Shown here: positions 14,733 to 62,639 of the stretch, one piece after another
Layout: every line of letters begins with the position of its first letter
How positions within the stretch are numbered: position 1 is the first letter of the stretch
Program-made: the position numbers and the translations under genes
NCBI GenBank assembly: GCA_964016885.1
Contig: OZ024742.1
Span: 83,700,001-83,764,000 of the forward strand
DNA from: Eledone cirrhosa
Taxonomy: Eukaryota
DNA: 64,000 nt
Direction: 5' to 3'
The notes under the pieces: generated by a model
Told to the model about the DNA's origin: nothing
What the model saw: only the letters and a program-made list of their open reading frames with translations
Databases searched by the model: none

Positions 14733-14799
14733 CATACATACATACATACATACATACATACATACATACATACATACATACATACATACATACATACAT

Positions 14800-15406: not shown

Positions 15407-15498
15407 ATACATACATACATACATACATACATACATACATACATACATACATACATACATACATACATACATACATACATACATACATACATACTAGA

Positions 15499-18400: not shown

Positions 18401-19625
18401 CTCTCCGACAACATCAACGAACCTCGACGCGTAGGAGCCCGTTTCTCGAGCAAGTCTATCTGCATGAAACAGATAAGATCATGAGAGTTGGCAAGGAACT
18501 CCTTGAGAGATATTCCCTGCGTAATAATCAAAATCTCACACCCAGGGATGTCGCTCAGCATTATCGCAGTGAATCCATGGATGAAAAACTGCATGCCTAT
18601 CAGCAAAAAATCATGTATGGATATGTTGCCAGGAAGCTCCAGAGTGAGAGTAATATAGATAAGGAAAGTAGTTTATCTTGGACCAACAACCGCTATATTG
18701 GCTCCCACTTTGAAGGATACGCTTTTGCAATCCAGAAACAGATTAGCACGAAATACCTGATTCACAAAAGAGATAGGGATGCAGGCAAAACACCTAGATG
18801 TGATAACAAGTGCAGACTCTGCAGAATTAACATCGAAGATGTCACTCATGTCATAAGCAGCTATCCAAAGATGTCATCGCGGTACCATCTACCTATGAGA
18901 CACGATGTAGTGGCCAAAACACTGTACAATGCAGTTCGTAAAAAAGATAGCCCCGATAATAAACACATTAAAAGCTACAACAATGTGGAAGACATCCATG
19001 TACATAATATGAAAGAGTACTGGTGGAATGTTCTAGTAAAAACCCCAATAAAATGCAGGCATAACTGACCAGATATTATGATATGGGACAGGGAGAAGAA
19101 AACATGCACAGTAGTGGAAATTAGCGGTCCAGCAGATGCCAATATAATATCAAAGATTAGTGGAAAGGAGAATATTTATGCAGAACTGATGAGAAATCTG
19201 CAGATACTCCACCCTGATTACACCTTCAGATATATGCCTGTGATCATTGGGGCACTGGGATATATTAGTAACTGCCCCAATACAAATCTTGAGAAGCTAG
19301 GCTTCACAGGAACAGAAAGAACACAACTAGTTAGGAAATTACAAGTACAATCCATTAATGGAACAGTAAAAATATGTAAAACATTCCAAAAGGTTTGCAT
19401 CTAATAACTGCATATACACATGTACAGATACAAAGCATATACATATGCACATACAAAACATACACATCCACACATACAATAACATCCATATCTACACATG
19501 CATGCATACATACAGATCTACCTAGTTGATGTTGTGTAAATTCCAATGAGAGAGTCCTGTGTCTATGTTAGAAACCGACTCTCTCTCTATTGGTAAAACT
19601 TTGTGAAATTATAAAACCAGAAGAA
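15499..19625 (+). mobile_element. R4/Dong-like element, copy 3 (most complete; a few stops and frameshifts)
   Basis: ORFs 15711-16430, 16466-17026, 17099-18337 (RT: YRPIAC, GIFQGDSLS, FFVDDLK), 18334-19068, 19078-19404 (RLE). Confidence 0.92.
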
Positions 19626-19640
19626 CATACATACATACAT

Positions 19641-20247
19641 GGTGGCTGCCAACTCGTTTTCGAGTACGGCCACTACTTTATATCCATGTAGGAGAACCCC
19701 TACCAATGCGCTGAACGAATGTGACTTTTTAGTCCAGCCAGCGACTTGAAAACTCTGGTACAAACACTACACTTGTGACAATTATTGACACATAGTGCTG
19801 GGCCCATGGTACCATGTGACGACAAGTGCAGAGAGATCTCCAGATATAAAGCAATGCCTGTGCTGTGAAGCTTTTATAGTGAGTAAAGGCACTGCACAAA
19901 GCCAGTCCCACTCTCTTAACCAAGATGATATTTACCAAAAAGAAGAACAATTCAACATCATTGGATACCATCAGGGTTGCAGGTGTTATATCAGAGTTTT
20001 CCTTCTCCTAGAATTCTGCCTTGACAAAGGCTAAGGGGTCATCTCTCCCTGTGATTTTGGATGGCTATTGACTCTTAAGAGCCCCTTTGCCTTTTGACAG
20101 GTTTTGTTTTTAGTCCTGCAGGATGTCCAAAGCCACCCTCCTCACCAAGAAACCTTGGTGGGGTTGCCAGTTTAGTCGCCAACGACCCGACCATGAGACA
20201 GGTTGTACTGGGATACATGTTACCAGTAGCACCAACTGGTGACCTGA
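19641..20247 (-). mobile_element. ~600 bp non-autonomous retroelement, full copy
   Basis: Colinear with 14800-15406. Confidence 0.75.
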
Positions 20248-20939
20248 CACCAACATACATACATACGTACATACATACATACATACGTACATACGTACGT
20301 ACGTACGTTTATACATACAAAAATAACGCTACACAAATTTATTAATACAATGGATTTCTCCAGTGATGTTCGCTGGAAATGTTACTGACACAAATTTGAA
20401 TAATATTATATTAGGTATTATTGGGTGCTGAGGGAAATTATAGTAGAAACTGTATGTAAATTCTAAGTATAATAACAGAACCTTAGAAAATCGCACCTTT
20501 AATAATTAATAAGATGTTTAGGAAAACTAAACTCGTTCGTCAAATGGAATGTTTACATATAAAGTATTCAGAGAATGTTACTCTCATTGACTGCATTAGT
20601 GTTTGCTTAATAATGATTTCTGATCTAGACACAATTTCAACGATTTGGGAGTAGGGGAAAGTCGATTAAATCGACCCCGATTAAATCTATACCGCAAAGC
20701 AAGTTGTCCGACGCCCAACCGATACTGTCAATCCACCGGTTGTTTAAGAATGGATGGTTAGATACTCCCGTAACTCCTGGGGAAGTCGTAGGGCACCGTA
20801 TTGACATACCGCATTTCTAGGGCATTTTAAAACCTGGTAGAGCCCATCCCTCTCCAGGTCTGAATATAGAAGATTTCTTCCAGAGAAGGATAGAGAGTGA
20901 GAGGATGGAAGCAAGAAAGAAATATAAAGGAATAATCGG

Positions 20940-25590: not shown

Positions 25591-26286
25591 GAAAAGAATG
25601 AAACGAAATATCATTTTTCATTCTTAGTACGGCTGATACTTAAATATAAGTATAAGTATGTACAGTAGTATGTATATATATACATACATGCACACATATA
25701 TATATGTACGTATGGGTTTACCGAACATTATTATAATGTTCAGCTTGTTTGTAAACAAACAGCCCGAATTACGCCGTACAGTGTTCGGCAACCATCGTTG
25801 CCATTTTGTTCAGCATTGACAAAGGAACGATGAACTAGTTTCAAGCTTATTAGCTATCGTCAGCATCGTATACCTTCCTCCAGATGATTGAACGTTTGAA
25901 AGTATATACTTTCCTTATGCATATTAACGGCTGAGCAGCCTAATTTGCATATCGAATGAGTTAGTCGGCCGGGCGTACCGAAAACGATAAATGGAAAAGA
26001 ATGAAACGAAATTTCATTTCTCACTCTTGGTACGGCTGATACTTAAATATAAGTATAAATATGTATACGTACATACATATATGTATACAGACGTACAGTA
26101 GTATGTATATATATACATACATGCACACATATATATATGTACGTATGGGTTTACCGAACATTTATTATAATGTTCGGTTTGTTTGTAAACCAACAGCCCG
26201 AATTACGTCGTACAGTGTTCGGCAACCATCGTTGACATTTTGTTCAGCATTGACAAAGGAACGATGAACTAGTTTCAAGCTTATTA
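25591..26286. repeat. Partial direct duplication (25591-25851 / 25994-26286), probable tandem PLE pLTR
   Basis: Both copies run gaaaagaatgaaacgaaa...gaactagtttcaagcttatta. Confidence 0.85.
25828..25868 (-). ncRNA. Minimal type I hammerhead ribozyme
   Basis: Minus: cgatg CTGACGA t agct aata agct t GAAAC ta GTT catcg. Confidence 0.75.
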
Positions 26287-26639
26287 CCTTCTAACAGGAA
26301 GGTATACGATGCGGTCAATCCCGTGCTGTTAAAAATAGCAGCCGTTCAAACGACCAAATGTTTCTCTACCGTTGGGGAGAATAATATTAAAGGTATGTGT
26401 TGCTACATGTAATTAATACACACAGGGACACAGGTACAGTCCAACCGTATTCCAGTGTGGTTCAATGGCAAGTTAATAAATTAACAAGCTAGAACATATA
26501 AAATCAAGGGAGTGTAAACACAGAAAATATCTTTAAAAGATTGTTTCATCATTCATTTCTTCTCATTCTGAGGCAGTTTTGTATGGCGCCAGTTTGTAAT
26601 TTAAACTCGGGAATTTTATATTCTCCGAGAGAGAAAAGT

Positions 26640-26960: not shown

Positions 26961-26995
26961 CACACAAAAGCGAAGTAATAGCAAGCCACAGACGT

Positions 26996-28970
26996 TTACA
27001 TCAATATAGCCCCTCCTGATGACCTTAAATTAAGACCCATAATAGCAGGCACCGCATGTGAAACCCACCGCCTAAGCAACTTCCTAGATATTCTGCTTAA
27101 ACCTTTCCTAAAACATATAAAAAGCTTCATAAGGGACGACCTTGACATGCTCAACCACCACCCAACAACACTCAATAACGAACATACCCTACTAGTAACC
27201 TTTGATGTCATCAATTTATATTCCAATATCCCACACAACCTAGGTATAGAGGCAATACAATTCTGGATGGAAAATTTCCCTAGTGAACTTCCACAGCGCA
27301 TCCCTAAAGAATTTGTGTTGGAGGGACTCAAATTTATCTTGGAAAACAATTTCTTCGAATTTTATGCCCAATACTACAGACAGAAATCTGAGACTTGTCA
27401 TGGGATATTTGGAAACCATTCTCTACCGCAAAGTTCTAGACAAATACGGCAACCACTTCTACCAACACATAGAAAAGAACTGGAAGAGATATCTGGACGA
27501 CTGCTTCATCCTCTGGCATGAAAGTATAGATAGACTGTTTGAGTTCAAAACCCTTCTGAATGGACTCAAAACTAACTTACAATTAACAATGGATTACAGC
27601 CATGAACAACTCCCTTTTCTCGACATCCTCATCAAGAAAACAAGCAACAAAATAGAAACAGAGATATACTACAAACCCACAGACTCCAAACAATACCTTC
27701 CATTCAACTCGTGCCACCCTAGACACACCAAAATGGCAATTCCTTATAACCTAGCCAGAAGGATCTGCACAATAGTTTCAGATAAATACACATGCTACAC
27801 ACGACTAGAAGAATTAAAAAACACACTTATCAGCAGAAACTACCCACCATCCCTAATCACCAATGGATTCCAACGTGCCCTAAAACTAGACATCCAGGAA
27901 CTCAGACACCCCAAACCCTGGAATGAACCACAACAAAAACTCTACCATACATCTCCACACACAACCCCCTCAACAATGAGGCATTCGACACCATCCTCCA
28001 GAACATTCCTTTACTAAAAAGAGACCCAAGAATGAACAATATCCTCCAAACACACAACATCATAAAGAGCAAAAGACAACCCAAATCCATAAAAAACATC
28101 CTCACACAAGCCAAAATCCAACAAACCCTCACAATGAACCCTCCAGTAACAAAATGCGGAAGACCCAACTGTGGCATATGCATAAATCTAATAGAAGGTT
28201 CAACATTCCATTTTAAACAAGGACAACTCTTCACAGTTAAACACAACTTTACATGTGCATCTGAAAACCTTATCTATGTTTTGACCTGCTCAGGTTGTCA
28301 AGAGCACTACATAGGACAGACAAAAAACAGGCTCCGTCAACGTATGACGGTCCATAAATCACAAATTAAAATACAGGAATACAGAAAGATTGCATTTAGT
28401 GAACATATCGCCAATTGTGCTCTCAACCAACATCCAAACTTTAAAATTTGCCCATTTACAAATTCATAGACAATGCTACTTTCATCCAACGTACCAATAA
28501 GGAAACACATTTCATTAATAAATTTCAACCATTACTCAATGCCCTAAAAATCGGACCAATCTAAAACTGCAACAAACCATCAAACATTTACAAGAGTTAC
28601 CTCCCTCTCACCCTACCTAATCCTTTTTCTTAAATAAATTAAATATCACCCAGAAAGAATTGCTTCCCCCTGCATATTAACTCTCTAAAAAGGGAAATAA
28701 TATCAAACCTCAGTCCACCATTTGCCTCCAACACGGAACCATGGTTCAACTAAGCACTCTTGTAAATAACATTATTTTTTCTTCCACATTGACTTTTTAC
28801 GTTCCACATTATGCACGTTTTTTTTCCTTTTTCTTTTTTCTTTTCATTTCTTAAACCTTGTTTGTATATAACATTATTCTTTCTGCACATTCTGTTTAAC
28901 ATGTGCGACACCACACTAATACATTTCACTATCATTTGATAATGCATATAAATGCTGAAACCGGTAATAG
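26996..28970 (+). mobile_element. Penelope-like element (Neptune/Poseidon type), 5'-truncated and frameshifted
   Basis: LVTFDVINLYSNIP, WKRYLDDCF, LPFLDI, YYKPTD..QYL...SCHP, CGRPNCGIC, GIY-YIG LIYVLTCSGCQEHYIGQT; HHR-like TTGATAA..GAAACCGGTA at ~28936-28966. Confidence 0.9.
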
Positions 28971-29329
28971 ACAATAATTAAATATATAAATAGATAAATA
29001 AATGCCATTGTTAAATAATAAATAAATCAACTAATACCTTAACACTTCACACAAAGTAAAACATCTCGTTTTAATCATTTTCTAACCCAGAAAAATGAGA
29101 GGGAGAAACAAAAAGGAAAAAAATATATTTTTCTTCCTCATAATCGTCTCTTTCTCCCTGTGTTCATATATATATATTTCGTTGGGTTATATACTCCAAC
29201 TCATTTAGTCTGTTATATAAACAAAAATGGCTAAATGGCTACCTCAACAGAAGATTTTGTTGAAGTTTTTTGAAAATAGAGAGCTTTTCACGGGCAGGTA
29301 ATCTCGAATTTAGCTATAAATAGAACACA

Positions 29330-29346
29330 CTAGCGCCATCTAGTGT
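29330..29346 (+). promoter_or_regulatory. CTCF-like binding motif
   Basis: ctagcgccatctagtgt matches the core CTCF consensus; motif match only. Confidence 0.4.
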
Positions 29347-29711
29347 GTTCCAACAGCAGCTAAGTACGGGCAACCAGTGATGACTTTTGTCGTTATCAAA
29401 CAGGTACTGCCGACCACTTACTGTTGCAAGATAATATAAACAAAAACATATAGCTTAGAAGCATATTTACTTTGACTGATCAGCCAAATTTGCATATAGA
29501 GTGACAGCTATGCTGTCAGTTTTCAAATTCATAGCGGAATGCTTTCAAAATGTTTATTTATAAGCATATCATATGTCACCAGATATACAACCTCACGTAT
29601 TATATATATATATAAAGGTAGAACACTGGATGGTAATATCCGTAGTGGTAGAGCACTCAATCCATGGGACAAGTTTGGTAGAAGTAGAAACACAACAGTT
29701 AGTTCGTCATA

Positions 29712-29752
29712 CCGAGAACAATTGTTTCACCATATGCGGATCTTGAGCTCGG
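29712..29752 (-). ncRNA. Hammerhead-like motif with mutated core
   Basis: Minus: ccgag CTCAAGA tccgcatatggt GAAAC aatt GTT ctcgg (G5 changed to C). Confidence 0.55.
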
Positions 29753-29756
29753 ACTG

Positions 29757-30060
29757 GTTATACGGAACAGGAAAAACAACCGTATGAACGCGCATGCGCA
29801 GAAACGGTCACTTCACCCAAGTGATATAAAACCACGGGCGAAAGGTGTAAGGGAGATAACTACGAATGTCCGGAATAAATTGTTCGAGTTGATTAGAATA
29901 TTCGAGTTGATTCTAATATTCTAATCAACTCGAACAATTTATTCCGGACATTCGCAGTTATCTCCCTTACACCTTTCGCTCGTGGTTTTGTATCGCTTGG
30001 GTGAAGTGACGGTTTCTACGCATGCGCGTTCATACGCTTGTTTTCCTGTTCCGTATAACT
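29757..30060. repeat. Inverted repeat with ~145 bp arms
   Basis: gttatacggaacagg...gattagaatatt / aatattctaatc...cctgttccgtataac. Confidence 0.92.
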
Positions 30061-30119
30061 ATTATATATATAAAATAGTTATAACTATATATATATAACT
30101 ATATATATATATATATATA

Positions 30120-30202
<83 letters not shown>

Positions 30203-30853
30203 TTCCAGAAGCCTTTTAAACGTAACTTTCCGTATTTATTACTGTTATGAGATATTGTTTGTTATTTAGGTATCACTTCTCTGTTTTTAGCCTAAGAAAA
30301 TATCTATATGCGTGTGTAATTAATACATGCATACATTTATTTTTTTTTAATTAATTGAGTTCTTAACACGCAGGATTGATAATGTTTTTGAAAAAACTAA
30401 TTAACCCAGTGTATTAAATATTTTACTCTTAATTTGGCCAGAGATTTATATTTCCAGATGCCTTTTAAACGTAACTTTCCGTATTTATTACTGTTATGAG
30501 ATATTGTTTGTTATTTAGGTATCACTTCTCTGTTTTTAGCCTAAGAAAATATCTATATGCGTGTGTAATTAATACATGCATACATTTATTTTTTTTTAAT
30601 TAATTGAGTTCTTAACACGCAGGATTGATAATGTTTTTGAAAAAACTAATTAACCCACGTGTATATTATTTTACTTTTCTCGTGACTCACGATTGTCTCC
30701 CTTTTCAGCTTCGTGACGCTATGATATTTCCTCAGTCTAAAGACTGCTGGAATTTCAAATTTGGCGGTCATTCGATGCGTGAAGGGATAACTTAGTGGAC
30801 ACGAAAAATAACTGCGGTAAGAAATTTTTACTTATATCAAAGTTTAATGGGCA

Positions 30854-30976
30854 TCCACTGATGATTTATAAGTGCCCACCTACATATATTCTTACAAGAA
30901 ATTATGTTAGGCTTCTACATAAACTGGATACATTCTCCCAACTTGTAGAAAACTTATAATGAAACAATTGTTTGGA
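30854..30976 (+). ncRNA. Type I hammerhead with branched insertion in loop II
   Basis: tcca CTGATGA t ttataagt [~80 nt, two hairpins] acttataa t GAAAC aatt GTT tgga. Confidence 0.75.
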
Positions 30977-31847
30977 AAGAGAGATATATTTTAATTTTAA
31001 TTATATCTCATATAAAATAATACAACTGGCTTTCCACAAAATACATATAGTTAGCACCCCAAACACTAAATTGGGATTATACTAACGTATATCCTAATGT
31101 TTGTTGAGTGAGATGGTTACTAGTCGGAGTTTAGCTTAAAGCTTTCTCTGTTATTGTATTAAATTTTTACTCTTGATTTGGCCAGAGATTTATATTTCCA
31201 GATGCCTTATAAACGTAACTTTCCGTATTTATTACTGTTATGAGATATTGTTTGTTATTTAGGTATCACTTCTCTGTTTTTAGCCTAAGAAAATATCTAT
31301 ATGCGTGTGTAATTAATACATGCATACATTTATTTTTTTTTAATTAATTGAGTTCCTAACACGCAGGATTGATAATGTTTTTGAAAAAACTAATTAACCC
31401 ACGTGTATTAAATATTTTACTCTTAATTTGGCCAGAGATTTATATTTCCAGATGCCTTTTAAACGTAACTTTCCGTATTTATTACTGTTATGAGATAGTG
31501 TTTGTTATTTAGGTATCACTTCTCTGTTTTTAGCCTAAGTAAATATCTATATGCGTGTATAATTAATACATGCATACATTTATTTTTTTTTAATTAATTG
31601 AGTTCTTAACACGCAGGATTGATAATGTTTTTGAAAAAACTAATTAACCCACGTGTATATTATTTTACTTTTCTCGTGACTCGCGATTGTCTCCCTTTTC
31701 TGCTTCGTGACGCTATGATATTTCCTCAGTCTAAAGACTGCTGGAATTTCAAATTTGGCGGTCATTCGATGCGTGAAGGGATAACTTAGCGGACACGAAA
31801 AATAACTGCGGTAAGAAATTTTTTCTTATATCAAAGTTTAATGGGCA

Positions 31848-31970
31848 TCCACTGATGATTTATAAGTGCCCACCTACATATATTCTTACAGGAAATTATG
31901 TTAGGCTTCTACATAAACTGGAAACATTCTCCCAACTTGTAGAAAACTTATAGTGAAACAATTGTTTGGA
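31848..31970 (+). ncRNA. Second tandem copy of the expanded hammerhead
   Basis: Same fold as 30854-30976. Confidence 0.75.
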
Positions 31971-32237
31971 AAGAGAGATATATTTTAATTTTAATTATAT
32001 CTCATATAAAATAATACAACTGGCTTTCCACAAAATACATATAGTTAGCACCCCAAACACTAAATTTGGATTATACTAACGTATATCCTAATGTTTGTTG
32101 AGTGAGATGGTTACCAGTCGGAGTTTAGCTTAAAGCTTTCTCTGTTATTGTATTAAATATGTATGTATATATATATTTGATATATATTTATCCTTATCGA
32201 ACCCTCTTTGGATTTTAGTCTTCAAATTTATTATTAT

Positions 32238-32346
<109 letters not shown>

Positions 32347-32359
32347 GAAGATCCGCATA

Positions 32360-32758
32360 TGACCCCTTAGCCTTCGTCAAGGCAGAATTCTAGGAGAAAG
32401 AAAACTCTGATATAACACCTGCAACTCTGATGGTATCCAATGATGTTGACTTGTTCTTTTTGGTAAACATCATCTTGGTTAAGAGAGTGGGACTGGCTTT
32501 GTGCAGTGCCTTTGCTCACTATAAAAGCTTCATGGCACAGGCATTGCTTTGTATCTGGAGATCTCTCTGCACTTGTCGTCACATGGTACTATGGGCCCAG
32601 CACTATGTGTCAATAATTGTCACAAGTGTAGTGTTTGTATCAGAGTTTTCAAGTCGCTGGCTAGACTAAAATGTCACACTCGTTCAGCGCATCGGTAAGG
32701 TTTCTCCTACATGGATATAAAGTAGTGGCCGTACTCGAAAACGAGTTGGCAGCCACCA
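32360..32758 (+). mobile_element. Truncated copy of the ~600 bp non-autonomous element, opposite orientation
   Basis: Reverse complement of ~14800-15200; ends ttggcagccacc then (AT)n. Confidence 0.8.
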
Positions 32759-32877
32759 TATATATATATATATTCTTTTACTCTTTTACTCTGTTACCTG
32801 TTTCAGCCATCCGGCTGAGGCCATGCTGAGCACCGCCTTTGTTGCTACACATTTTATCTCCAGCCTGTATAGGTTGG

Positions 32878-35877
32878 TCACTGGTGTAAGAGGGAGTTTG
32901 TTGCTGCTGCCCTTAGGTTTCCCTTGTGTCTTGCTGTGGGCTCATCCGGGATCCTGGATAACAAGGTGTCGAGATGTTTCCTGAAGACATCCACCTCCAC
33001 GTCATGTAAATCTCTCAGATCCCTCGGCAGCTTGTTGAAGAGTTGAGGGCCCTTGAATCCCAGGCTATTGCAATACCTGTTCCTTATTCTAGATCTGGAA
33101 GACGGGACCTTTGGCACAACACAGTGACGTCCTGTTCGACGGTTGGTCCAGCTCCCAATGCCAAAGTTTGGTGCTAGTCCCTCCAGGATTTTCCACATGT
33201 AGATCACTGCGTATCTCTCCCGTCTTCGTTCCAAGGAGTAGAGGTTCAGTTCCTTTAGCCTCTCCCAGTAGCTTGTCTCCCTCATCTTAGCAATCCTCTT
33301 GGTGCAGCTTCGCTGGATTGCCTCAAGCTCCGTGGTTAGTTTGACACTATGGGGTGACCACAACTGGGAGTAGTAATCCAGGCGGCTTAGGACAAATGTC
33401 CTCCATAGTGTCAACATGGTGTCTCGATCTCTTGTCCGGAAAGTCCTCAAGCTCCAGCCAGCGAGTCGTCTGCACATTGTCGCCACTTTCATGATGTGTG
33501 AAGAAAAAGATGCATCATCGCTCATGTCTATGCCCAGGTCTCGTATCGATTTTGACACGGGGATATCGGTCCCTCCTGGTCCTGTGTAATTGTGTTGTAC
33601 TATATTTGTGTTTGCAGGTTTGTATTGTAGGGCTTGGAATTTGCCAGCATTAAACTGCATGTTGTTTTCTTCCGCCCATTTGTATATGGCATCCAGATCC
33701 TGCTGTAAAAGGGCAGCGTCAGCCGGGTTTTTGATTGCCTGTGCTACCTTAGTGTCATCAGCAGAGCTAGTGAGGGATGTTGTTGTATGTACTACAGAGG
33801 GCATGTCTGAGAGAGCCACCAAAAACAGTAGTGGTCCCAGGACTGTCCCCTGGGGCACCCCACTTGTTATTGGTGTTTCCTTTGAGAGGGCCCCATTTTC
33901 TGCGACTGCCTGGCTTCTGTCCTTTAGGAAGTCATGCAGCAACTCACCTACTTTTCCAGTTATGCCGAGTCCGTGTAGTTTGTGACATATCATTCCGTGG
34001 TCGACCTTGTCAAAGGCCTTCGCAAAGTCAAGATATATCACGTCCACATGTGAGCTGTCTAGTAGTTGTTTCAGTACCCAGTCGTAGTGATGTAGCAGCT
34101 GTGTAAGGCAGCTTCTTCCTGGGCGGAAGCCATGTTGCGTGCTAGTCAGGCGGTCATTTTCTTCGAGGAAAGTGATCAGTTTCTTTCTGACGACTCGCTC
34201 CATGACCTTACTGATATGCGACGTCAGGGAGACTGGCCTATAGTTTTTGGCCTCCGCTCTGCTACCTCCTTTATGGATAGGGCATATTGTGTCTTCTTTC
34301 AGCTCCCTGGGTAGTACACCGCTAGCCAAGGAGCTTCTGAAGAGCATCTTCAGTGGAGTTGCTAAGGCCCGCTTACATATTTTCAAGAGAACTGCTGGGA
34401 ATCCATCAGGTCCAGCAGCCGAGTCTGTTCTAATTTCATCAATGGCGTACACCACATCTTCCTCCGTTATGTCTATGTGGTTGATGGTTGCCATTTCTTC
34501 ATGTAGTGTTGTGGCATCAAAGAACTCCTCTGGCTTCGTTATTTGCATGTGCCTCAGTGGACATGTGAACACACTTTTGTACTGTTCGCTCAGTATTTCA
34601 CATATCTCTTGGGGGTTTTCGGTTAATGAACCGTCCGTATGGAAGAGTGACCCAATCTTGCAGTGTACTAAGGCAAATTTAAAGAAGGCCTTAGGGTTTG
34701 TTTTAATGTTTTCTATGGCCCTGTTCTCTTTCTTTGCCCTCTCATTCTCATGGGAAAGCTTGAGTGCAATCTCGGTGCCAAGTAATGCACATTTCAAATA
34801 GGATTCCTTCTTGTTTTTGTGTTGTTGACTATTCAACTGGTTTGAGAGTTTGGTTCTACGTCTCATAAGGATTTTCCTATCTCTGGGAATAAGATTTTTG
34901 TGTCTGTTTGCCTCTTTCTCCGGGACAAACTTTTTGCATATAGTGTGTATCGTTGTCATGAAGTGTTGAAATTGTGTGTTAATGTCTTGTGTAGCGGTGT
35001 TTTCACTCCATGTTTGGTTCCGGATTTCTCTCTTAATCTTTTTCCAGTTAGCCTTGTAGAAGTTAAGGCTGGATAACGTCCCGGAGCTTCTTGGTGGTTT
35101 TGTCTCTGTTGGTTCTCTTGGACCACATATCATTAGCTCTACTAAGTTATGATCCGAGAGAATTGTTGGTGTCACCTTTACATTGTGGATGAGCACTTCG
35201 TTGTTTGTAAAACAGAGGTCCAGGACATTTTCGCCTCTTGTTGGGAGGAGTATTGCTTGCTCCATGAACAGCCTGTGTGTGAGGGCCAGCAGGGATTCCG
35301 TCTGTCTCTGTTCTATTGACGTCATTCCAGAGAGGAGGTGGCCCTCAGGCCATTTGACCTTTGGTAGGTTGAAGTCTCCCAGCAGTAGAATGTTGAGACC
35401 CTGGTCCAGTTTGTCAAGGACCTCTTCTATCCTACTTAGGCTATCCTCAAATTTACCCTCATGACTGGGGGTATCGGGCGGCCGATAGGTGACACATATT
35501 ACTGTCTGTAGTTGCTTCATATGTACTATCAGTGTGTCACAGACTGAGTTTGAATGTGTCAACAGTACAATTGGTGTGACATCTTCACGGATATACAGAG
35601 CAACCCCACCATGAGTTCTCTCCTTCCTGTCCGAACGAAATACAGTATATTTCGGTATATGTATTTCTGCATCTGCTATACTGCTTGTCAGGTGCGTTTC
35701 GGTTAGTGCCATGCATAATGCTTGATTGCTTATGGCTAAGTCTCCCAGGTAGGAAATTTTACTCATGTTACTGAGTTTCACCAGGCCTCTGACATTCAGC
35801 AGCAGCACTGGTGTGACTTTTGGGGTGCCAGTAATGGCTGTCGGTATGACACCTGGTCTGGTGTCAGCGGCGGCCAC
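32878..35877 (-). CDS. LINE ORF2: APE endonuclease plus reverse transcriptase (999 aa)
   Basis: LLNVRG, LTETHL, YRPP, GDFN, LDL, SDH (APE); NYRPVSLTS, QHGFR, YLDFAKAFDKVDH, GVPQGTVLGP, SADDTK (RT). Confidence 0.93.
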   Translation of the reverse strand: MAAADTRPGVIPTAITGTPKVTPVLLLNVRGLVKLSNMSKISYLGDLAISNQALCMALTETHLTSSIADAEIHIPKYTVFRSDRKERTHGGVALYIREDVTPIVLLTHSNSVCDTLIVHMKQLQTVICVTYRPPDTPSHEGKFEDSLSRIEEVLDKLDQGLNILLLGDFNLPKVKWPEGHLLSGMTSIEQRQTESLLALTHRLFMEQAILLPTRGENVLDLCFTNNEVLIHNVKVTPTILSDHNLVELMICGPREPTETKPPRSSGTLSSLNFYKANWKKIKREIRNQTWSENTATQDINTQFQHFMTTIHTICKKFVPEKEANRHKNLIPRDRKILMRRRTKLSNQLNSQQHKNKKESYLKCALLGTEIALKLSHENERAKKENRAIENIKTNPKAFFKFALVHCKIGSLFHTDGSLTENPQEICEILSEQYKSVFTCPLRHMQITKPEEFFDATTLHEEMATINHIDITEEDVVYAIDEIRTDSAAGPDGFPAVLLKICKRALATPLKMLFRSSLASGVLPRELKEDTICPIHKGGSRAEAKNYRPVSLTSHISKVMERVVRKKLITFLEENDRLTSTQHGFRPGRSCLTQLLHHYDWVLKQLLDSSHVDVIYLDFAKAFDKVDHGMICHKLHGLGITGKVGELLHDFLKDRSQAVAENGALSKETPITSGVPQGTVLGPLLFLVALSDMPSVVHTTTSLTSSADDTKVAQAIKNPADAALLQQDLDAIYKWAEENNMQFNAGKFQALQYKPANTNIVQHNYTGPGGTDIPVSKSIRDLGIDMSDDASFSSHIMKVATMCRRLAGWSLRTFRTRDRDTMLTLWRTFVLSRLDYYSQLWSPHSVKLTTELEAIQRSCTKRIAKMRETSYWERLKELNLYSLERRRERYAVIYMWKILEGLAPNFGIGSWTNRRTGRHCVVPKVPSSRSRIRNRYCNSLGFKGPQLFNKLPRDLRDLHDVEVDVFRKHLDTLLSRIPDEPTARHKGNLRAAATNSLLHQ

Positions 35878-36676
35878 TCTGGGTCCCTTAGCTGTGGTGG
35901 TCTCGAGTGCTGGTGTGGGTGACCTTGGCTCTGGAAACGATGCAGCCAGGTCAGCTGTCCCACAATTTTCTCTGCCATCACTAAAAAATTTTTCTGCTCT
36001 GCTGCTGCCATCTGTATCTCGTCGGCATGTGCGTGCCTTCTCCTTGTTGGTGCGGCACGCGCGACATCAGCATACTTCTGGAGCGGCTTAATTCGGCTTT
36101 GGCTGGGGTATGTTGCGCGAGTAGGATGGGCATAGTTCGTTTGAGACCTGGGGTGGGCGAATCTGCATCCCATCCCTGTCTCTCCATGCCAGCAGGTCCC
36201 GTTCTTGAAAGACTTGCACATTACTTGGGTTCTTTTGCTCCCAGTGTCTCGGTGCTTTCTGTTCTTCCTTTGAACAGTTGTCTCTGGCCCCTCTGCGCTT
36301 GGTTCTCCTTTGGAAGGTGATTTCGCTTTTCACCTTTACCTTTTGCTTGTTGGTTGCCCGGCCTGCCCTCCGTGACTGTGGCGGAGGGTATCTCATTTTC
36401 TTTCAGGTCCGTGCTTGTGCTCTCCTCCCTTTCTTTTTCCCTCTTTTTCTCTTTCTCCTCTCCCTTCTCTTCGGTTTTCTCCTCCCTGAGGACACGGCTT
36501 AGCATTGCCATATGTGGCGCTATGAGGACATACGCCTTCTCAATTTCTTTTCTCTTTCTCTCTATCTGTGCCAGGGTCCTCAGAAACCCATGGCTTTTCA
36601 GGCTCTCCGCCATCTTTTTGCTTGGTGGAGACCCATCAGCCATGGTCCACCCCTTGATCAAAACCGTTAGTTCCAT
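35796..36676 (-). pseudogene. LINE ORF1, split at 36221; charged coiled-coil region plus CCCH zinc finger
   Basis: 36221-36676 (E/K-rich) then 35796-36221 starting CKSFKNGTCWHGETGMGCRFAHP (C-x7-C-x8-C-x3-H). Confidence 0.7.
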
Positions 36677-39248: not shown

Positions 39249-39468
39249 ATTAAATGTATTAAACTAAGATTTGATTGTTTTAATATTTTGTATCTCGGCT
39301 CTGTAATACATTTGATAATTTGCATTGAGCCTTTTCTCCTACCGGTAACTGGTTAGTACTACCCTCCATATTTATAATTGTATATAAAACATATATAAGT
39401 ATAAATTCATATATATATATATATATATATAGAAAGATTTGAATGGATACAGTTTAGTTGAAAGGAAT

Positions 39469-39590
39469 TTATTGACACGTGTTTCTGTAACAGTTACATA
39501 ACCTGAAAACAGCTGCTATCTACAAAAGTTTTAGTTATGCAGACATTCAATATTTCAATGTTATTATTTACTGTTATTTCATCAGAATAA
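39469..39590 (-). ncRNA. Expanded hammerhead (left arm of palindrome)
   Basis: Mirror of 41827-41948; stem II taacagt/actgtta. Confidence 0.75.
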
Positions 39591-40159
39591 TATTATTGAG
39601 GACCTATTTGGTTTTTATAGAGAATATTAGGAGGGAGGGGTGAAGTTGTTAGAAGAATAGTTGAGGGAGTGGTTTGTTGATAGCAGTGAGAATTTTTTGG
39701 TGGCAGTGAGTAATTAGATTCCCATCTGTTATTTTGACATTTTTATAGAATATATTATTGGTTATTTTTCTAAATTTATAGAAGGATTAGAGATAGTAAA
39801 GATATGCGTGGTTGGTTTTGTGTTTGCACTTAATTAACATTCAGACTTAAATTTTTCTTTCAAGTGTACGTATCCTTTCACCCACGCATTCACACACAAA
39901 TATATTTGCACACCTCTACAAAATACATATACTCACATTCACATATTCATACTTACATACATATACAAATGCATACATATATATATATACACACATGTAT
40001 TCATGTACATACACACGCGTTCATGTGTATACATTTTCATACTCAACTTATCTTTATATACACACGCATAGACACACACATATATACATACATACTCTAG
40101 TCTATGTGTACACATATACATATACATACACACCTATACATATATATATATATACACAC

Positions 40160-40190
<31 letters not shown>

Positions 40191-41826
40191 AGCACTTTAA
40201 TACATGAATACACTTACATCCTACTATACACATCAAACATATATATATTTACTTATTTATATACATTTTCACATATATATACATACTTATGGACGTTTTT
40301 AGACACATTCATTATCGCATATTTGCACCTATTTTCATCAGCATATCTTTCCATTATTAGTGTGGTAATTTAAGGTTATTAATATATGTTGAGAAAAGAT
40401 TGTTTTTATATTTTTCTAACTAGAATGAGGTTTATATAGTTGGGGGGGATGTCCCTCTTTTATGTAATATTCGGCTTGTAGTGGGAAAAAAGGGTTTTAG
40501 TTCTGTGACGGCAGAATAATGTTCGTTCAATTCTGTTATTCAGCAATTTTTTCTTGTGTGTGATTATGTAATAAATCTCAAGATTACATAATTTGCAGAA
40601 ATTTTGGCTCCTGGAAAAGCTTTGGGTTTTAGCTAATTTCTCCCATTTTAGAGTAAACTTTTGATCACTATCCCTGAGCGTCCAAGCTTTTTCTGCTAAA
40701 GTTGTTACAATGTAACAACTTTAGCAGAAAAAGCTTGGACGCTCAGGGATAGTGATCAAAAGTTTACTCTAAAATGGGAGAAATTAGCTAAAACCCAAAG
40801 CTTTTCCAGGAGCCAAAATTTCTGCAAATTATGTAATCTTGAGATTTATTACATAATCACACACAAGAAAAAATTGCTGAATAACAGAATTGAACGAACA
40901 TTATTCTGCCGTCACAGAACTAAAACCCTTTTTTCCCACTACAAGCCGAATATTACATAAAAGAGGGACATCCCCCCAACTATATAAACCTCATTCTAGT
41001 TAGAAAAATATAAAAACAATCTCTTCTCAACATATATTAATAACCTTAAATTACCACACTAATAATGGAAAGATATGCTGATGAAAATAGGTGCAAATAT
41101 GCGATAATGAATGTGTCTAAAAACGTCCATAAGTATGTATATATATGTGAAAATGTATATAAATAAGTAAATATATATATGTTTGATGTGTATAGTAGGA
41201 TGTAAGTGTATTCATGTATTAAAGTGCTTATATATATATATATATGTATATATATATGTGTGTATATATATATATATGTATAGGTGTGTATGTATATGTA
41301 TATGTGTACACATAGACTAGAGTATGTATGTATATATGTGTGTGTCTATGCGTGTGTATATAAAGATAAGTTGAGTATGAAAATGTATACACATGAACGC
41401 GTGTGTATGTACATGAATACATGTGTGTATATATATATATGTATGCATTTGTATATGTATGTAAGTATGAATATGTGAATGTGAGTATATGTATTTTGTA
41501 GAGGTGTGCAAATATATTTGTGTGTGAATGCGTGGGTGAAAGGATACGTACACTTGAAAGAAAAATTTAAGTCTGAATGTTAATTAAGTGCAAACACAAA
41601 ACCAACCACGCATATCTTTACTATCTCTAATCCTTCTATAAATTTAGAAAAATAACCAATAATATATTCTATAAAAATGTCAAAACAACAGATGGGAATC
41701 TAATTACTCACTGCCACCAAAAAATTCTCACTGCTATCAACAAACCACTCCCTCAACTATTCTTCTAACAACTTCACCCCTCCCTCCTAATATTCTCTAT
41801 AAAAACCAAATAGGTCCTCAATAATA

Positions 41827-41948
41827 TTATTCTGATGAAATGACAGTAAATAATAACATTGAAATATTGAATGTCTGCATAACTAAAACTTTTGTAGATA
41901 GCAGCTATTTTCAGGTTATGTAACTGTTACAGAAACACGTGTCAATAA
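41827..41948 (+). ncRNA. Type I hammerhead with branched loop II insertion
   Basis: ttatt CTGATGA aa tgacagt [acatt/aatgt and tgcataac/gttatgta hairpins] actgtta ca GAAAC acgt GTC aataa. Confidence 0.75.
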
Positions 41949-42169
41949 ATTCCTTTCAACTAAACTGTATCCATTCAAATCTTTCTATTTTTCTCCGGAT
42001 TACTTTTGGAACTACAACTGGAACCGTCGAGCAAACTCTACGTGAGCTGTCAATCTACTGTGTGTAATATTTATATTACAATACAACGGAAAATACTGTA
42101 TATATATATATAGAGAGAGAGAGAGAGAAGAAATTTACGAAATGGAAATGCGGGTATATAGAATTTATT

Positions 42170-42695: not shown

Positions 42696-43860
42696 TTATA
42701 TGCATTTAAAAAAAGAAAAAGTCGTTTTCAAACGATGGTTACAATATAGAGAACGTTCAATTTTGCTGTTCAAAAGTTTGTTTACCGACGTTAAAATGCA
42801 GTATATCTCTAAATTGCATAACTTGCAGAATCGATGATTTTGCTGATATGCAGGCGCAGCTGCAATAATTTGCCAATCAAGGGAGAACGCTTGATTGTTC
42901 CTCCGAAGCTGCCAGGCTTTATCGGCGAGAGTTGTTACGGAGCGCATTTTCTCGTGCCTGATCGAAGATCGATGTTGGTATAGGCGAGCCTTGAAAGAAG
43001 TTGCGGTACATCCTACGTAATACCATTTGTTGATCCCGGAATTTATTGTACACCGGTAGACAATATTGCGTGCTAGGCACTGGTTATTCAGTGGGCACGT
43101 ACCTGGTTTGGTGCAGTTACAACTATTTTTATGTTTTGCAGTAGAATCCTGGATAGTTTGGTGGGGTTGTGGTTGCGTGTTAGTGCGTTGTATGTTGCTA
43201 TGCTGGTGCGCTGAGTCATTAGGGATGTACTTATTCAGTATTGCTGAGTTGAGTTTTCTAATTAGTTGTTCTATGTTAGGTGCAGTGGAGTATGAGAGTC
43301 TAATGGTGCGCGATTTAAAGATTTTATAGTATTTATGTGAAGTTGTAAAGTGTTTATTGATTAGTGTATAGAATTGTGAGATAATCTTAGTGCTAATAGA
43401 AGAATTGTACACGGGGTTATACCATATGTACTCTCTACGTCTGACTCTATTTGCTGGTTTGCACCTGTTAGTATGCCTATTGATGTGTGTGTGTGGTGCA
43501 ATACTAGTTTGACTTAGATGTGTTTTATTCATAGTACTTATGTGGTTATCGTCTAGATATTCAATTTTCTCGCAGTAACCAGCTTTTCTAAGTGCGTTAT
43601 TATAATATTCAGCATGCTCGTTGAAGGTCTGCAAATTAGACGACAGTCGGGAGATCCTTATGGATATATTTTTAGGGATAGATTTAATAATGGAATGAGG
43701 ATGGTTCGATTTTACATTAACGTACTTAAGATTTTCATTAAGTTTGTGAAATTGCTCTATATTACCGTTATTAAGGTTGAAGGTGACATCCAAGAAGTTG
43801 ACCACCTTAAGATTGTGTTCAAAGGTAATATTAAGCCCTAGTTCTAAGAAAAGTTTCCTA
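42696..43860 (-). CDS. Naiad-type Penelope-like RT thumb plus GIY-YIG endonuclease (5'-truncated)
   Basis: VNFLDVT, SNHP, WYNP, CNC...CPL..QC, IVYRC...YVG, FKARL..H, CKLCNLE. Confidence 0.9.
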
Positions 43861-44086
43861 ATAATAGGTTACAGTATCGTAAAAGAGGATAGAAAGAAGA
43901 GACATAAAGAGGTGCGATACAGAATATTACATGCCAAAAGCGGATGTGTAAGTGCTCAATGCTTGGGTTAGCAGGGTTAAATATTAGAGAAAGTTAACAT
44001 TTAGCGTAAAGGTTAAGCAGCACTGTAATAGGCAAAAGAATGAGTGAATGAAAGAGTTACAAGCCGTTAAAATATATCCTTATATA

Positions 44087-44127
44087 GCTCTTACACGTGT
44101 TTCGACCTGGGGGGACTCATCGGAGGC
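44087..44127 (-). ncRNA. Hammerhead (U4C) in the inverted pLTR
   Basis: Minus: gcct CCGATGA gtccccccaggtc GAAAC acgt GTA agagc. Confidence 0.55.
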
Positions 44128-46827: not shown

Positions 46828-46997
46828 TGGCGATTGGTTTGGCAGTATCGGTAGAGGGTCTGACACCATGCTTTCCAGCATAGTTACGTCCCTTTTCGGC
46901 TGGAGTTCAAATCCCGCCGAGGTTAACTTTGTCTTTCATCCTTACGGAGTCGATAAAATAAAGTACCAGAAATGCACTGGGATAATTGCTGGCCTTA
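46828..46997 (+). mobile_element. tRNA-derived SINE inserted in the PLE 3' region
   Basis: Colinear with 38373-38540. Confidence 0.85.
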
Positions 46998-47059
46998 AGA
47001 AACAATTATTATTATACCCTCTCAGGGCTGTAAGTAAGGTCTTTGCTTATTAATATCTG

Positions 47060-47096
47060 CCTCCGATGAGCCCCCCTGGGCGAAACACGTGTAAGG
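47060..47096 (+). ncRNA. Minimal hammerhead (U4C)
   Basis: cct CCGATGA gccc ccct gggc GAAAC acgt GTA agg. Confidence 0.7.
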
Positions 47097-58956: not shown

Positions 58957-59183
58957 AATATTTATATATATATATATGTATATATATATGTATATATATA
59001 TGTGTATATATATATATGTGTGTGTATATATATATATGTATATATGTTTATATATATATATATATAAATATATAGTAATAATAATAAAATTGAAGACTAA
59101 AATCCAGAGAGGGCTCGATAAGGAAAATATATATCAAATATATAAGAACCGAAGAGCAAATATTTATTAAAATAACAGATTAA

Positions 59184-59234
59184 AGTTTAAGCAAAGAATC
59201 GCTGCTTTCACCCTTAACGGGATCTTCTGAAACT
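59184..59234 (-). ncRNA. Type I hammerhead, U4A core variant
   Basis: Minus: agttt CAGAAGA t ccc gttaa ggg t GAAA gcag cgattct ttgc TT aaact. Confidence 0.65.
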
Positions 59235-60160
59235 AACAAAGTCAATCTGTAAACGCAGAACTGGATATTTCAAAAAACGTTGCAACCGGAGGAAGACAGG
59301 AAGACGATACTTTGGTTCATGGTGACGTTCGCTGGCAAAGAACGGGAAAAAACGAATAATACGTCATTAATAGGAGCGGTGAAAAACAATTACGTGCAAG
59401 GACAGAACCACGTTTATAGTATAAAAGAGGTCGTAGACTAATGTTCTCTAAGTGGTGCATAGAGACGTTCTCTGGCAATGAACGAAAAAACGAAGATAAT
59501 AAGTCATATGTGGAGCGTGGAGAACAATAGCGTGCAAAGACAAAACCACGTAAATGGTATAGCAGAAGTCGTAGACTAAAATTCTAACTAGGGGACCGAA
59601 TGAATCTCCGCTACAGAGTTAAGAACAAAGTAAATAAATACAATACAGAAGTAATAGGAACAAATAAATACATACACGCAAACAGATACGTACATACACA
59701 AGCATACGCAAAACCTTACCATAGGTATACAAAACCACGCACATATAAATATGTGTATGTGTGTATGCTTGTGTACAAATAAATAAATAATTATATAAAC
59801 GTATATAAGTAAATAAATACGTATATACCAAGCGCACACACATACCTACAAATAAATACATGAAGGTTCGGAGACGTAAGTCAACTAAAACAAGAAGTAC
59901 ACATATACACACACCCACCATACGTACGAACCTGCATACTCACGCTGACGCAAAACTCCCATATACACATAACCAAGCCCTAAATACCAGAATATGTAAA
60001 AATTATACGCCAAAACAGTCAAATATACGTACGAGAAGGTATACATACCTTCACAAAACATACGGGTAATATATACTTACCTATGCAAATAAGTAAAGGA
60101 ATAAACAAAACATATACTTAGCTCCCACATCAAGACGTAAATATCCACGTATAGATCGTG

Positions 60161-62290
60161 CTATCCGTTAGGGTATAACGTAGGGCTGTAATACAGGAAA
60201 GTTTTGTGCAATTTATGTTTACAAGCCGAAATTGCCTCAGATTTTTTGTTTAAGATGTGGTCTGTGGCGTAGAGTATTTCCAGGGCCTCAGCGGCGCAGA
60301 AGTCACATGGTCTTTTATTTCCGTTATACGATCTAGCCCTAGCTAGGATCTCCCAGTGTACCTTATATTGGGTGTGGTTGTCTTTTAGACTCCAGATATA
60401 AGCTGAAAGTGACGTCATATTCCTTCTTAGAGGGTAACGAAAAGAATGGGTATGCATGTAAAGACGCTGCTTGAAACTATTGGCGGTTAACCCTATGTAG
60501 GCCCTACGGGACGTGGGTGTTACAACCTTACATTTGTAGACAATGTTACTATAGAGGCATTTCCCGGATAGGGGACAATCAGCCCGATTCCTACAATTAC
60601 AGTTAGTACTAACTACAGGGTTGCACGTGTTCCTACGGCTAGGTATTTTAGCTAAATTTGAAGCTGTGATGTTATGTGCAAGGTTAGGAGTCGTTGAGTA
60701 AGAAGTTTTAATAGTGTTTCTATTAAAAATTTTACTATATTTATGTGTAGGGGGAAAATGCTTCGTAATAAGGGAAAGAAAGATCTTAGCTAATGGTATG
60801 GCCACCTCCATATTATATGGTGGGTTAAACCAACAAATGCGACGGGATCTATTTCTTCTAGGTCTATACTCGTACTCTGTATATGCTACCTTATCGACAA
60901 ATCCACTTCGAGCAAGAGCTTCATTGTAATAATTGGAATGGTCGTTGAAAATGCGCTCGTTGGTGGAAAGACGGGAAAGCCTCAACGAAACGTTTTTTAC
61001 CAGGTTCTTGGTTATGCTGGCAGGATGGTTGGAATGCTTACTTATGTAATTAAGCGTATCATTCGGCTTTCTATACGGGTAATGCAACCCATTCAATAAA
61101 TTGAGGGTAACGTCGAGGTAATTAACGACCGAGAGATTGGCCTCAACCTGTATAGAGAGGTTGAAGCCTTTAAAGAAGGCTGTGAGTTCTTTTCTGAATC
61201 TGTCGCAAGCACGAGGTCCGCACTTAGTCATGGTCAAAAGGCCATCGTCACGGTACAAACCACCGCCCGCGTTGGGGCATTCGTCCTTGATAGAGAAAAG
61301 AAGGAAAAGGCCAATAAGATCAGTAACCTCCGCAGAGTCACTGGTGCCCATACTCACGTCGAATGGGGTACTATTGGATTTGTTAATCCAAATAGAATCG
61401 TCGAAATTAATCACCGACTTTCGGGCATTAAGGATGACATCAACTTCGAAATCCTTAACCACTGTGAGTGTTTTAGCGAAATTGATAGCTCTAAGGAGAA
61501 GTGGTAAAGTGATGGAGGAGTAGTAATTGTTGATGTCGAATTGGATAAAACGGCAATGTTCCTTGTTACATATGCCGTTGAACCAATCAATCACCGCGAA
61601 AGAATTGTTCCACAGTGCGAGAGGGGCCAAATTTCTAATTTCAGGTATAATTCTATCAAGAATCGTTTTACTAAGTCTACCTAAATCGGACTTCGTAGGG
61701 TTAATAAGCCGAATAGAGGGGTAGTTCGGAAAATTGGATTTGTGGTCCTTCAGGGTAAAGTGGGGAGAGATAGGGTTCAGGGGTTCGGTCCGGTCCAGGA
61801 TGTTGAGATCAGATGTGATTTTAAACCCAGCATCGTTGATTTCATTGATGACACACCGATTAGTTTTACGGTAATCCTTAGTTACAGCATTATGTAGTAG
61901 TTGATGGTAAGTACTGCGCTCCACTTGATATAGGTTGCCAGTTTTGTCGGAATGGACGTGCACGGCGTTAGAATCCTTAATAGAACGAATTCTATTCTTC
62001 AGGTCTTGCTGGAAGGAATTGCTCCTATTCCGAAATTTGATACTCCGAATGAGTTCCAAGACATCATTTTCGAAGGGTAGCAATGCTGGGTTCCACGGAG
62101 GGTTATTATAGGTTTTAAATCCAAATTTGTCCTGCTTGTTGTCTGCTTTTCGTGGATTATCGAAATAAAAGGCACGCCAACGCAACCTTTTAATGAACGC
62201 GTCTGTTTTCTGTATCAGGAGTTTTAGGTATGTTTTCCTGCTTGGTACGGGTATGTTCTTTGTAGAAATATTCAGATGTTGTTTCTGCAT
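60161..62290 (-). CDS. Penelope-like (Naiad-type) reverse transcriptase-GIY-YIG endonuclease, intact 709 aa
   Basis: STKNIP, RLRWRA, DKT.N.Y, TLKDHK, RLINP, FDINNYYSSI, FDVSMG, GLYRDDGL, SNHP, WFNPP, CNCR/CPL.G.C, IVYKC..YIG, CDFC. Confidence 0.95.
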   Translation of the reverse strand: MQKQHLNISTKNIPVPSRKTYLKLLIQKTDAFIKRLRWRAFYFDNPRKADNKQDKFGFKTYNNPPWNPALLPFENDVLELIRSIKFRNRSNSFQQDLKNRIRSIKDSNAVHVHSDKTGNLYQVERSTYHQLLHNAVTKDYRKTNRCVINEINDAGFKITSDLNILDRTEPLNPISPHFTLKDHKSNFPNYPSIRLINPTKSDLGRLSKTILDRIIPEIRNLAPLALWNNSFAVIDWFNGICNKEHCRFIQFDINNYYSSITLPLLLRAINFAKTLTVVKDFEVDVILNARKSVINFDDSIWINKSNSTPFDVSMGTSDSAEVTDLIGLFLLFSIKDECPNAGGGLYRDDGLLTMTKCGPRACDRFRKELTAFFKGFNLSIQVEANLSVVNYLDVTLNLLNGLHYPYRKPNDTLNYISKHSNHPASITKNLVKNVSLRLSRLSTNERIFNDHSNYYNEALARSGFVDKVAYTEYEYRPRRNRSRRICWFNPPYNMEVAIPLAKIFLSLITKHFPPTHKYSKIFNRNTIKTSYSTTPNLAHNITASNLAKIPSRRNTCNPVVSTNCNCRNRADCPLSGKCLYSNIVYKCKVVTPTSRRAYIGLTANSFKQRLYMHTHSFRYPLRRNMTSLSAYIWSLKDNHTQYKVHWEILARARSYNGNKRPCDFCAAEALEILYATDHILNKKSEAISACKHKLHKTFLYYSPTLYPNG

Positions 62291-62321
62291 GATGAATATA
62301 AGTCAGTAGAGTGCTCAACCG

Positions 62322-62372
62322 AGTTTCAGAAGATCCCGTTAAGGGTGAAAGCAGCGATTCTTTGCTTAAACT
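62322..62372 (+). ncRNA. Inverted copy of the U4A hammerhead
   Basis: Reverse complement of 59184-59234. Confidence 0.65.
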
Positions 62373-62419
62373 TTAATCTGTTATTTTAATAAATATATAT
62401 ATAAATATATATATATATA

Positions 62420-62639
62420 AACTCAGAGCTGTATGGGAGCATCCCAAAAGTCAGCTCAAAAGTGACACAGAGACTGAGGTTAGCTGGACATGCTCACCGA
62501 CATCCAGAGTTGACATTGCACTCAGTGCTCCTTTGGGAACCCCTACATGGACACACTAGAAGAGGAAGACCAAGGTTAACGTATGTTGATGCCCTAAGGA
62601 CAGACACTGGTCTGTTGGATACGCAGGACATGGCAGGAC

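Follow-up and report, generated by a model that had tools for sequence, protein, structure and literature searches.

Is a non-coding tandem repeat with one hammerhead ribozyme (HHR) per unit an established retrozyme, or is it the doubled end of a Penelope-like element (PLE)? This question is raised by a locus in the 64-kb stretch of Eledone cirrhosa DNA analysed here (the window), which is animal-type DNA, rich in microsatellites and dense with LINEs and PLEs. The locus lies between a left (TA)n tract (30063..30194, reaching 30202 in the repeat scan), an insertion target typical of Hydra-clade PLEs, and a right (TA)n tract (32241..32305), next to which (TG)n follows. On the plus strand it consists of the first A copy (A1a, 30195..30409), the 5' end of which is short by ~33 bp, the second A copy (A2a, 30410..30659) and B (30660..31164), followed by the two A copies of unit 2 (A1b and A2b, 31165..31653) and its B (31654..32159), i.e. 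an (A-A-B)x2 repeat with a period of 994 and four A copies of ~250 bp each. Alignment of 30195-31164 with 31188-32158 showed 98.35% identity over 970 bp, with 15 substitutions and 1 indel. This alignment and the (TA)n tracts bear out the original prediction of an (A-A-B)x2 tandem with a period of ~994 bp in TA-rich flanks. The array comprises 1.98 units and an extra PLE-type tail of ~84 bp (32160..32243, plus strand), which lies outside the unit, is found at the end of unit 2 only and had been overlooked in the original prediction. Folding of the unit-2 copy of B gave a long 5' stem-loop, the HHR and downstream hairpins, in this order. No further copies of A or B were found in the 64-kb window. 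Directly to the left of the repeat, at 29590-30059, there is a 300-bp palindrome (92.8%) that is part of a different PLE-type end, located on the minus strand; it has a decayed compact HHR at 29747 (CTCAAGA), which shares the GAAACAATTGTT helix III with the repeat.

The junctions between the blocks are related to each other. An imperfect ~20-nt repeat at the A|A junction recurs at both other boundaries, B|A and A|B. At B|A there are a ~10 nt microhomology overlap (31155-31164) and two private differences relative to the A|A junctions. The first ~33 bp of A are absent from the 5'-most copy and present at the three junctions, and the starts of both units lie at most ~33 bp from the same point. 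The four A copies carry private changes only: over the ~215 bp that they share, there is no site diagnostic for A1 versus A2, and the upper bound of the A1-versus-A2 divergence is ~1.4%, compared to 1.65% between the units. Since diagnostic sites are lacking, both duplications appear to be young and roughly contemporaneous. This evidence is weak; it does not point to A-A being an old feature of a long-lived unit.

Same-strand HHRs had been predicted at 30854 and 31848, and both positions proved to be stem I starts of expanded type I HHRs. The first (30848..30976, plus strand) has a 4-bp stem I (TCCA/TGGA, 30854-30857/30973-30976), a core at 30858-30864, domain II at 30865-30960, GAAA at 30961, a palindromic helix III at 30964-30971 and a GUU triplet, with the predicted cleavage after 30972. 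The second (31842..31970, plus strand) has its core at 31852, and cleavage is predicted after 31966. The CTGATGA cores begin at 30858 and 31852 and are followed, after domain II, by GAAAC-AATT-GTT. The predicted cleavage sites at 30972 and 31966 are 994 nt apart, in line with the proposed monomer of ~994 nt. Both HHRs have the CUGANGA and GAAA core, A15.1-U16.1, an NUH triplet and three helices with helix I open; the type I architecture, with one expanded HHR per unit, was thus correctly recognized. Positions are numbered here according to the usual HHR scheme. In the predicted fold, domain II is a 96-nt three-way-junction domain with a U10.1.U11.1 mismatch, an 8-bp helix and two hairpins. The mismatch itself is a known tolerated HHR variant (listed as such in PMC3088659). 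The folding z-scores of domain II were -4.2 and -2.9, with 0 and 2 of 200 shuffled sequences being equally stable. Helix III would have 2 bp in the monomer and 8 bp between the molecules of a dimer (-6.4 kcal/mol, duplex energy only), so that the dimer-type palindromic helix III of the original prediction is retained as a predicted 8-bp intermolecular helix.

Without a pseudoknot, the active monomer fold lies 7 kcal/mol above the minimum free energy (MFE) structure. A candidate pseudoknot is formed by a 6-bp UGGGCA/UGCCCA pairing beside stem I (possible strand at 30848-30853 in the first HHR; chance 0.017 with shuffled domain II); it was found in one of the four expanded families of the window, and the same helix is also present in the inactive MFE fold. 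We regard this possible contact between helices I and II as a lead only. The two HHRs of the repeat differ at 3 positions, none of which disrupts a predicted pair, and the pair of HHRs at 39585 and 41832, from another family, differs at 2; across these and the repeat's 3 differences, predicted pairs are kept or the positions are unpaired. We give little weight to these pair-preserving differences as support for the fold, since A-to-G changes yield G.U pairs automatically. A decayed second HHR just before the end of B, like the one in the element at 59229, was considered and rejected, as no alignment was obtained in the core.

The proposal that the repeat is non-coding was confirmed by two findings. 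In the doubled monomer, the longest stop-free stretch in six frames was 61 codons, and a Hydra-PLE protein profile, made from 80 of the 120 relatives of the protein encoded at 60161-62302, had no match between 28421 and 40475, which includes 30195-32245. The profile matched PLE coding sequences at 40475-40945, 42711-43862, 44196-46222, 57026-58756 and 60203-62290, and weakly at 27568-28421. An autonomous Hydra-clade PLE has an ORF for RT with a C-terminal GIY-YIG domain and the marks RWK, DKT and CxCx5C; such an ORF is absent from the repeat and present in its neighbour at 60161-62302. The absence can be explained by simple 5' truncation: there are only ~450 nt of unique sequence upstream of the HHR core, and this fits the 3'UTR lengths of Hydra ends in the window. 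No autonomous parent of this exact family was found in the window. Two candidate parents, the PLE ORF at 26982-28469 and the LINE at 32878-36066, were rejected, as neither has DNA in common with the repeat. The former (plus strand, weakly matched by the Hydra profile) is a frameshifted PLE RT and GIY-YIG ORF of another clade, presumably Neptune-like; the latter is an ORF of 1062 codons with RT and APE endonuclease in one of several LINE copies (631-5990, 12243-20325, 32359-36066), some of which lie in repeats with 91-93% identity.

The origin of the repeat is indicated by its 3' end. An intact Hydra-clade PLE on the minus strand (59070..62420), which is not part of the repeat, carries a terminus and a tail at its 3' end, and both have counterparts in the repeat. 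The last 35 bp of B (32125-32159 in unit 2) match the terminus of this reference element (59195-59161, minus strand) at 28 of 35 bases, a score that was reached by 0 of 20000 shuffled sequences, the next-best score in the rest of the window being 24 versus 38. The tail matches even better: 70 of 74 bases of 32170-32243 are identical to 59143-59071 (minus strand). It ends in (TA)n and has a GAGCACTCT-like motif at 32199. A search with the 23-nt tail pattern in prokaryotic genome contigs gave no matches, which is uninformative for an animal element. The repeat thus has a Hydra-clade 3' end, with homologous terminus and one-sided tail, inserted in (TA)n as are almost all Hydra families described in PMC8557442, so that the link to PLEs is firmer than originally predicted. 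What it lacks is the compact canonical HHR of the clade (domain II of 96 versus at most 26 nt), whereas the core, U.U and GUU agree. The B of unit 1 ends in the tail-less Hydra-type terminus, and the unit junction is located there, ~190 nt downstream of the cleavage site and 1-2 nt from the end point of a tail-less inverted copy of the reference element's end. The tail is better conserved than the preceding 35 bp (Fisher p 0.036), and the 10-16 bp between them are unaligned; the tail could therefore have been a pre-existing target rather than part of the template.

The protein of the reference element comprises 709 aa from Met, has DKT, CxCx5C, CxxC and CxH motifs, and is 38-56% identical to its best relatives; it has RWR in place of the RWK that is among the marks of the clade in PMC8557442. 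Its HHR at 59229 is a compact variant (CAGAAGA, U4A) with a 5-bp non-palindromic helix III, and its 3'UTR contains a 138-bp internal tandem. The tail-less inverted end copy (62322-62396, 75 bp) is 100% identical, which suggests recent activity, and we consider this element a candidate relative or mobiliser of the repeat. An extension at one end only, as in the repeat, was also seen in the Hydra pair at 44k/47k. Tails at one end only, like partial tandems, have been described as signatures of PLEs (as outlined in PMC8557442 and PMC11167929), and in one PLE the tail reflects two internal RT start sites (according to PMC11167929); the tails observed here are longer than the 30-40 bp given in these sources. 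The 44k/47k pair belongs to a broken Hydra-clade PLE (44166-46255) between inverted ends (43950-47155), each of which has a compact HHR-like motif with the core CCGATGA, with a ~90-nt tail at the left end only.

From these data we conclude with moderate confidence that the repeat stems from a Hydra-clade PLE and represents its non-coding 3' end, with 3'UTR/pLTR, HHR, terminus and tail, present as a direct partial tandem in (TA)n that was laid down by PLE reverse transcription. The anatomy of the repeat, the homology of its terminus and tail and the positions of its junctions were directly observed, and we count the HHR fold as established by computed folding. We infer the following steps for the formation of the tandem. 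The PLE RT would prime at nicked (TA)n and copy a linear RNA, beginning with the tail and passing through B and both A copies; it would then switch or re-initiate at the tail-less terminus via the ~10 nt microhomology and copy a second, nearly full unit, almost to the same point. By these steps, the tandem would be a product of PLE reverse transcription and not of ribozyme circularisation. Should the plus strand be transcribed, helix III pairing between the two HHRs could set free an RNA of 994 nt. With such a release, the repeat would stand at the proposed birth of a non-LTR retrozyme in the sense of Li et al. 2026, who derive retrozymes from pLTRs (10.64898/2026.07.22.740005); it would be at most a nascent and not an established one, and a possible starting point for a circular-RNA element. 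Truncated pairs, inverted or direct, also occur elsewhere in the window, in keeping with the reading as a reverse-transcribed PLE end. Several observations run against this reading. Random truncation would place the starts of both units within ~33 bp of each other in only a few percent of cases, which suggests a defined short RNA, and the presence of the A|A junction in both units implies that A-A pre-existed in the template. The better conservation of the tail than of the preceding 35 bp, the lack of an autonomous parent of this exact family in the window and the stronger folding of the unit relative to three Hydra 3'UTR stretches (see below) also count against it.

Several further repeats were noticed in the window. 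These are a direct pair at 25591-26289 with a period of ~400 bp, which has a compact HHR at 25863 (minus strand) and sequence changes within the core of the second copy; a 286-bp direct repeat pair (97%) at 47156-48060; and a 300-bp palindrome (96%) at 63466-63765. Both latter elements lie between (TA)n tracts, and no HHR was detected in them.

An alternative that we consider unlikely is that the locus belongs to an established retrozyme family, non-autonomous and Hydra-derived, with a unit of 994 nt and dimeric HHRs that release a circularising monomer. In such a family, a Hydra RT would recognise the common terminus, start internally and copy about two rounds, and the tail would be the target or come from a linear multimer. 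The architecture does agree with the definition of a non-LTR retrozyme in Li et al. 2026 (10.64898/2026.07.22.740005), since two non-coding units follow one another directly and each has its own complete type I HHR, both on the same strand. Moreover, the unit is structured and has a defined start, the A-A junction is repeated in both units, and the common terminus would offer a handle for trans-mobilisation. Folding was also stronger than in three Hydra 3'UTR stretches: the z-scores were -3.7 for B and -5.6 for the circular monomer, compared with +0.3, -1.3 and +0.6; a fourth element of the window, which has no ORF, gave -3.8. The size of the unit is less telling. Consensus units of 51-972 bp are given for non-LTR retrozymes, from a search limited to a period of 1000 (10.64898/2026.07.22.740005); with a published maximum of 972 bp, 994 bp is borderline rather than exceptional, and "oversized", as the unit had been called, is an overstatement.

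What speaks against an established family is the tail. As it lies outside the unit, it could not be on a circle released by the HHRs, which argues against a circle as template unless the tail is the target. There are two units only, with no other copy in 64 kb, and A1 and A2 are undiverged. There is also the energy gap of 7 kcal/mol between the active monomer fold without the pseudoknot and the MFE structure, and PLE HHRs are described as weak even as dimers. Only one of nine predicted Xenopus retrozyme dimers was cleaved in vitro (10.64898/2026.07.22.740005), and in one PLE insertion did not require HHR cleavage, with uncleaved RNA as the template (as described in PMC11167929). With the tail outside the unit, the junction at the PLE terminus and no second copy in the window, the proposed origin from a circle or a propagating family was not supported. 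Local evidence favours the reading that the original prediction had named as its refutation, namely that the unit is the pLTR of a coding PLE and is tandem only here. 

The enlarged domain II is not restricted to the repeat. A descriptor scan, with thresholds fixed after the motif had been seen, identified 8 perfect-core HHRs in the window, 5 of them expanded with a palindromic helix III, and none in each of 20 dinucleotide-shuffled windows. Besides the compact HHR at 25863, there are two compact ones with perfect cores at 11994 and 10641 (both minus strand). Rfam gave no HHR match at the gathering score in the whole window; at the E-value setting, there were 18 weak matches in 28500-33000, none to an HHR family, and the miRNA matches were palindromes and microsatellites. 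Apart from the repeat, an expanded family with a 93-nt domain II is represented by 39585 (minus strand) and 41832 (plus strand), ~874 nt after a Hydra ORF end (40958). Expanded HHRs are also present at 42282 (minus strand; 90-nt domain II, 414 nt after the Hydra ORF stop at 42696) and at 53349 (minus strand), where domain II is a 116-nt rod (z -8.1), stem I has 10 bp and no ORF is adjacent; this last motif was missed by the descriptor scan and found separately. The 39585/41832 pair lies in a 2.56-kb near-perfect palindrome (39429-41988, 99.4%) of two inverted 5'-truncated Hydra ends. Each of these ends retains the endonuclease C-terminus over ~80 codons, next to a 3'UTR of ~1 kb and the expanded HHR.

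All four expanded families have a structured domain II (z -2.9 to -8.1) and a helix III of the form GAAAC-palindrome-GUH. Two of them lie behind Hydra ORF ends, and the repeat and 53349 have no coding remnant. Since expanded HHRs occur behind Hydra ORF ends, the enlarged HHR appears to be a feature of Hydra-PLE 3' ends here and not the hallmark of the repeat. In an alignment of six expanded HHRs, domain II could not be aligned between families and the cores were misregistered. Among 26 published Hydra HHR rows (File S2 of PMC8557442; our own count), domain II has at most 26 nt, U10.1.U11.1 occurs in 14 and cleavage after U in 10, so that the latter two traits, aberrant as they look, are typical of Hydra HHRs. 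The nearest long cases in the sources are, in Naiads, spacers labelled "HHR_half_core" with 35-50 nt and, in PLE-X1_sMoe, a loop of 35 nt. In the literature covered, we found neither PLE HHRs with a domain II of 90-116 nt nor cephalopod retrozymes; further cases of the former may be given in Lunse et al. 2017 and in bioRxiv supplementary material. More novelty lies in the enlarged domain II, which is also a better lead than the 1-kb period. It recurs in four families with non-aligning domain II, which Rfam did not see here, and HHRs and retrozymes may therefore be undercounted in genomes of this kind. A regulatory or protein-binding role of the extra domain is conceivable; for one PLE, protein assistance of the HHR has been reported (PMC11167929).

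These observations can be combined into a joint reading, which we hold to be doubtful: Hydra-clade PLEs of this lineage would have an overlooked class of HHRs with a structured 90-116-nt domain II that is too large for the usual descriptors, and the repeat would at the same time be a non-coding derivative that is mobile. Its two ribozymes, paired and perhaps stabilised by the pseudoknot, would release a ~1-kb animal circular RNA that is copied by an intact Hydra RT via the common terminus. If this were true, a retrozyme would have been caught next to its likely mobiliser.

We regard it as still less probable that a single truncated Hydra 3' end was duplicated later at the DNA level, with the TGTATTAAAT microhomology as the site of slippage or unequal crossover and the second HHR being incidental. 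The left breakpoint and the microhomology are indeed common to both duplications, the units are 1.65% apart with scattered changes, and the intact Hydra element also has a tandem (138 bp) in its 3'UTR; however, the ~33 bp missing from the 5'-most A would require several steps or later erosion, and the junction coincides with the PLE terminus. An assembly artefact, with two alleles concatenated, is very improbable, for although a divergence of 1.65% is within reach of allelic difference and microsatellite flanks are hard to assemble, there is neither (TA)n nor tail between the units, B|A departs from the A|A junctions by its two private differences, and 15 of the 16 differences between the units are substitutions.

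As the reverse-transcribed 3' end of a PLE, the repeat would be one locus that displays the proposed step of retrozyme birth, with a doubled PLE 3' end and two HHRs flanking one unit, and it still carries the parental terminus and tail. Without RNA cleavage or transcription, it would be an ordinary truncated PLE end.

How does the repeat compare with known systems? Relative to Hydra-clade PLEs (Craig et al. 2021, PMC8557442), it has no ORF, its domain II has 96 nt versus at most 26 nt (26 rows), its helix III is an exact 8-nt palindrome, its HHR lies ~190 nt from the terminus, and its tandem junction omits the tail, 5'UTR and ORF. It shares with them the (TA)n insertion, the tail at one end, a type I HHR close to the 3' end in which 10.1/11.1 is U.U and the triplet is the common GUU, the truncated copies in tandem or inverted orientation and, by eye, a GAGCACT-type motif, which several published consensus sequences have in their tail or 5'UTR. 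The putatively non-autonomous Chlamys PLEs, such as MRC1 (PMC8557442), belong to another clade and host and mostly lack HHRs, but they too are non-coding, form pLTRs, have head-to-tail insertions and possess a 3' end in common with autonomous families. In comparison with the minimal dimer-acting PLE hammerheads (Cervera and de la Pena 2014, PMC4209133), the HHR of the repeat lacks G10.1-C11.1 and has a two-hairpin junction where a small loop would otherwise cap helix II, whereas the 4-bp helix I, the helix II of 7-8 bp and the palindromic 15.2-16.2 region, which implies action as a dimer, are alike. Finally, metazoan non-LTR retrozymes (Cervera and de la Pena 2020, PMC7229834; Li et al. 2026, 10.64898/2026.07.22.740005) have units of ~220-390 bp, versus 994 bp here, where they have been validated (coral, mussel and axolotl), and the repeat has only two units and a PLE tail; it resembles them in its non-coding head-to-tail units with one type I HHR each, its low GC content (30%), its pLTR ancestry and the predicted release of a monomer.
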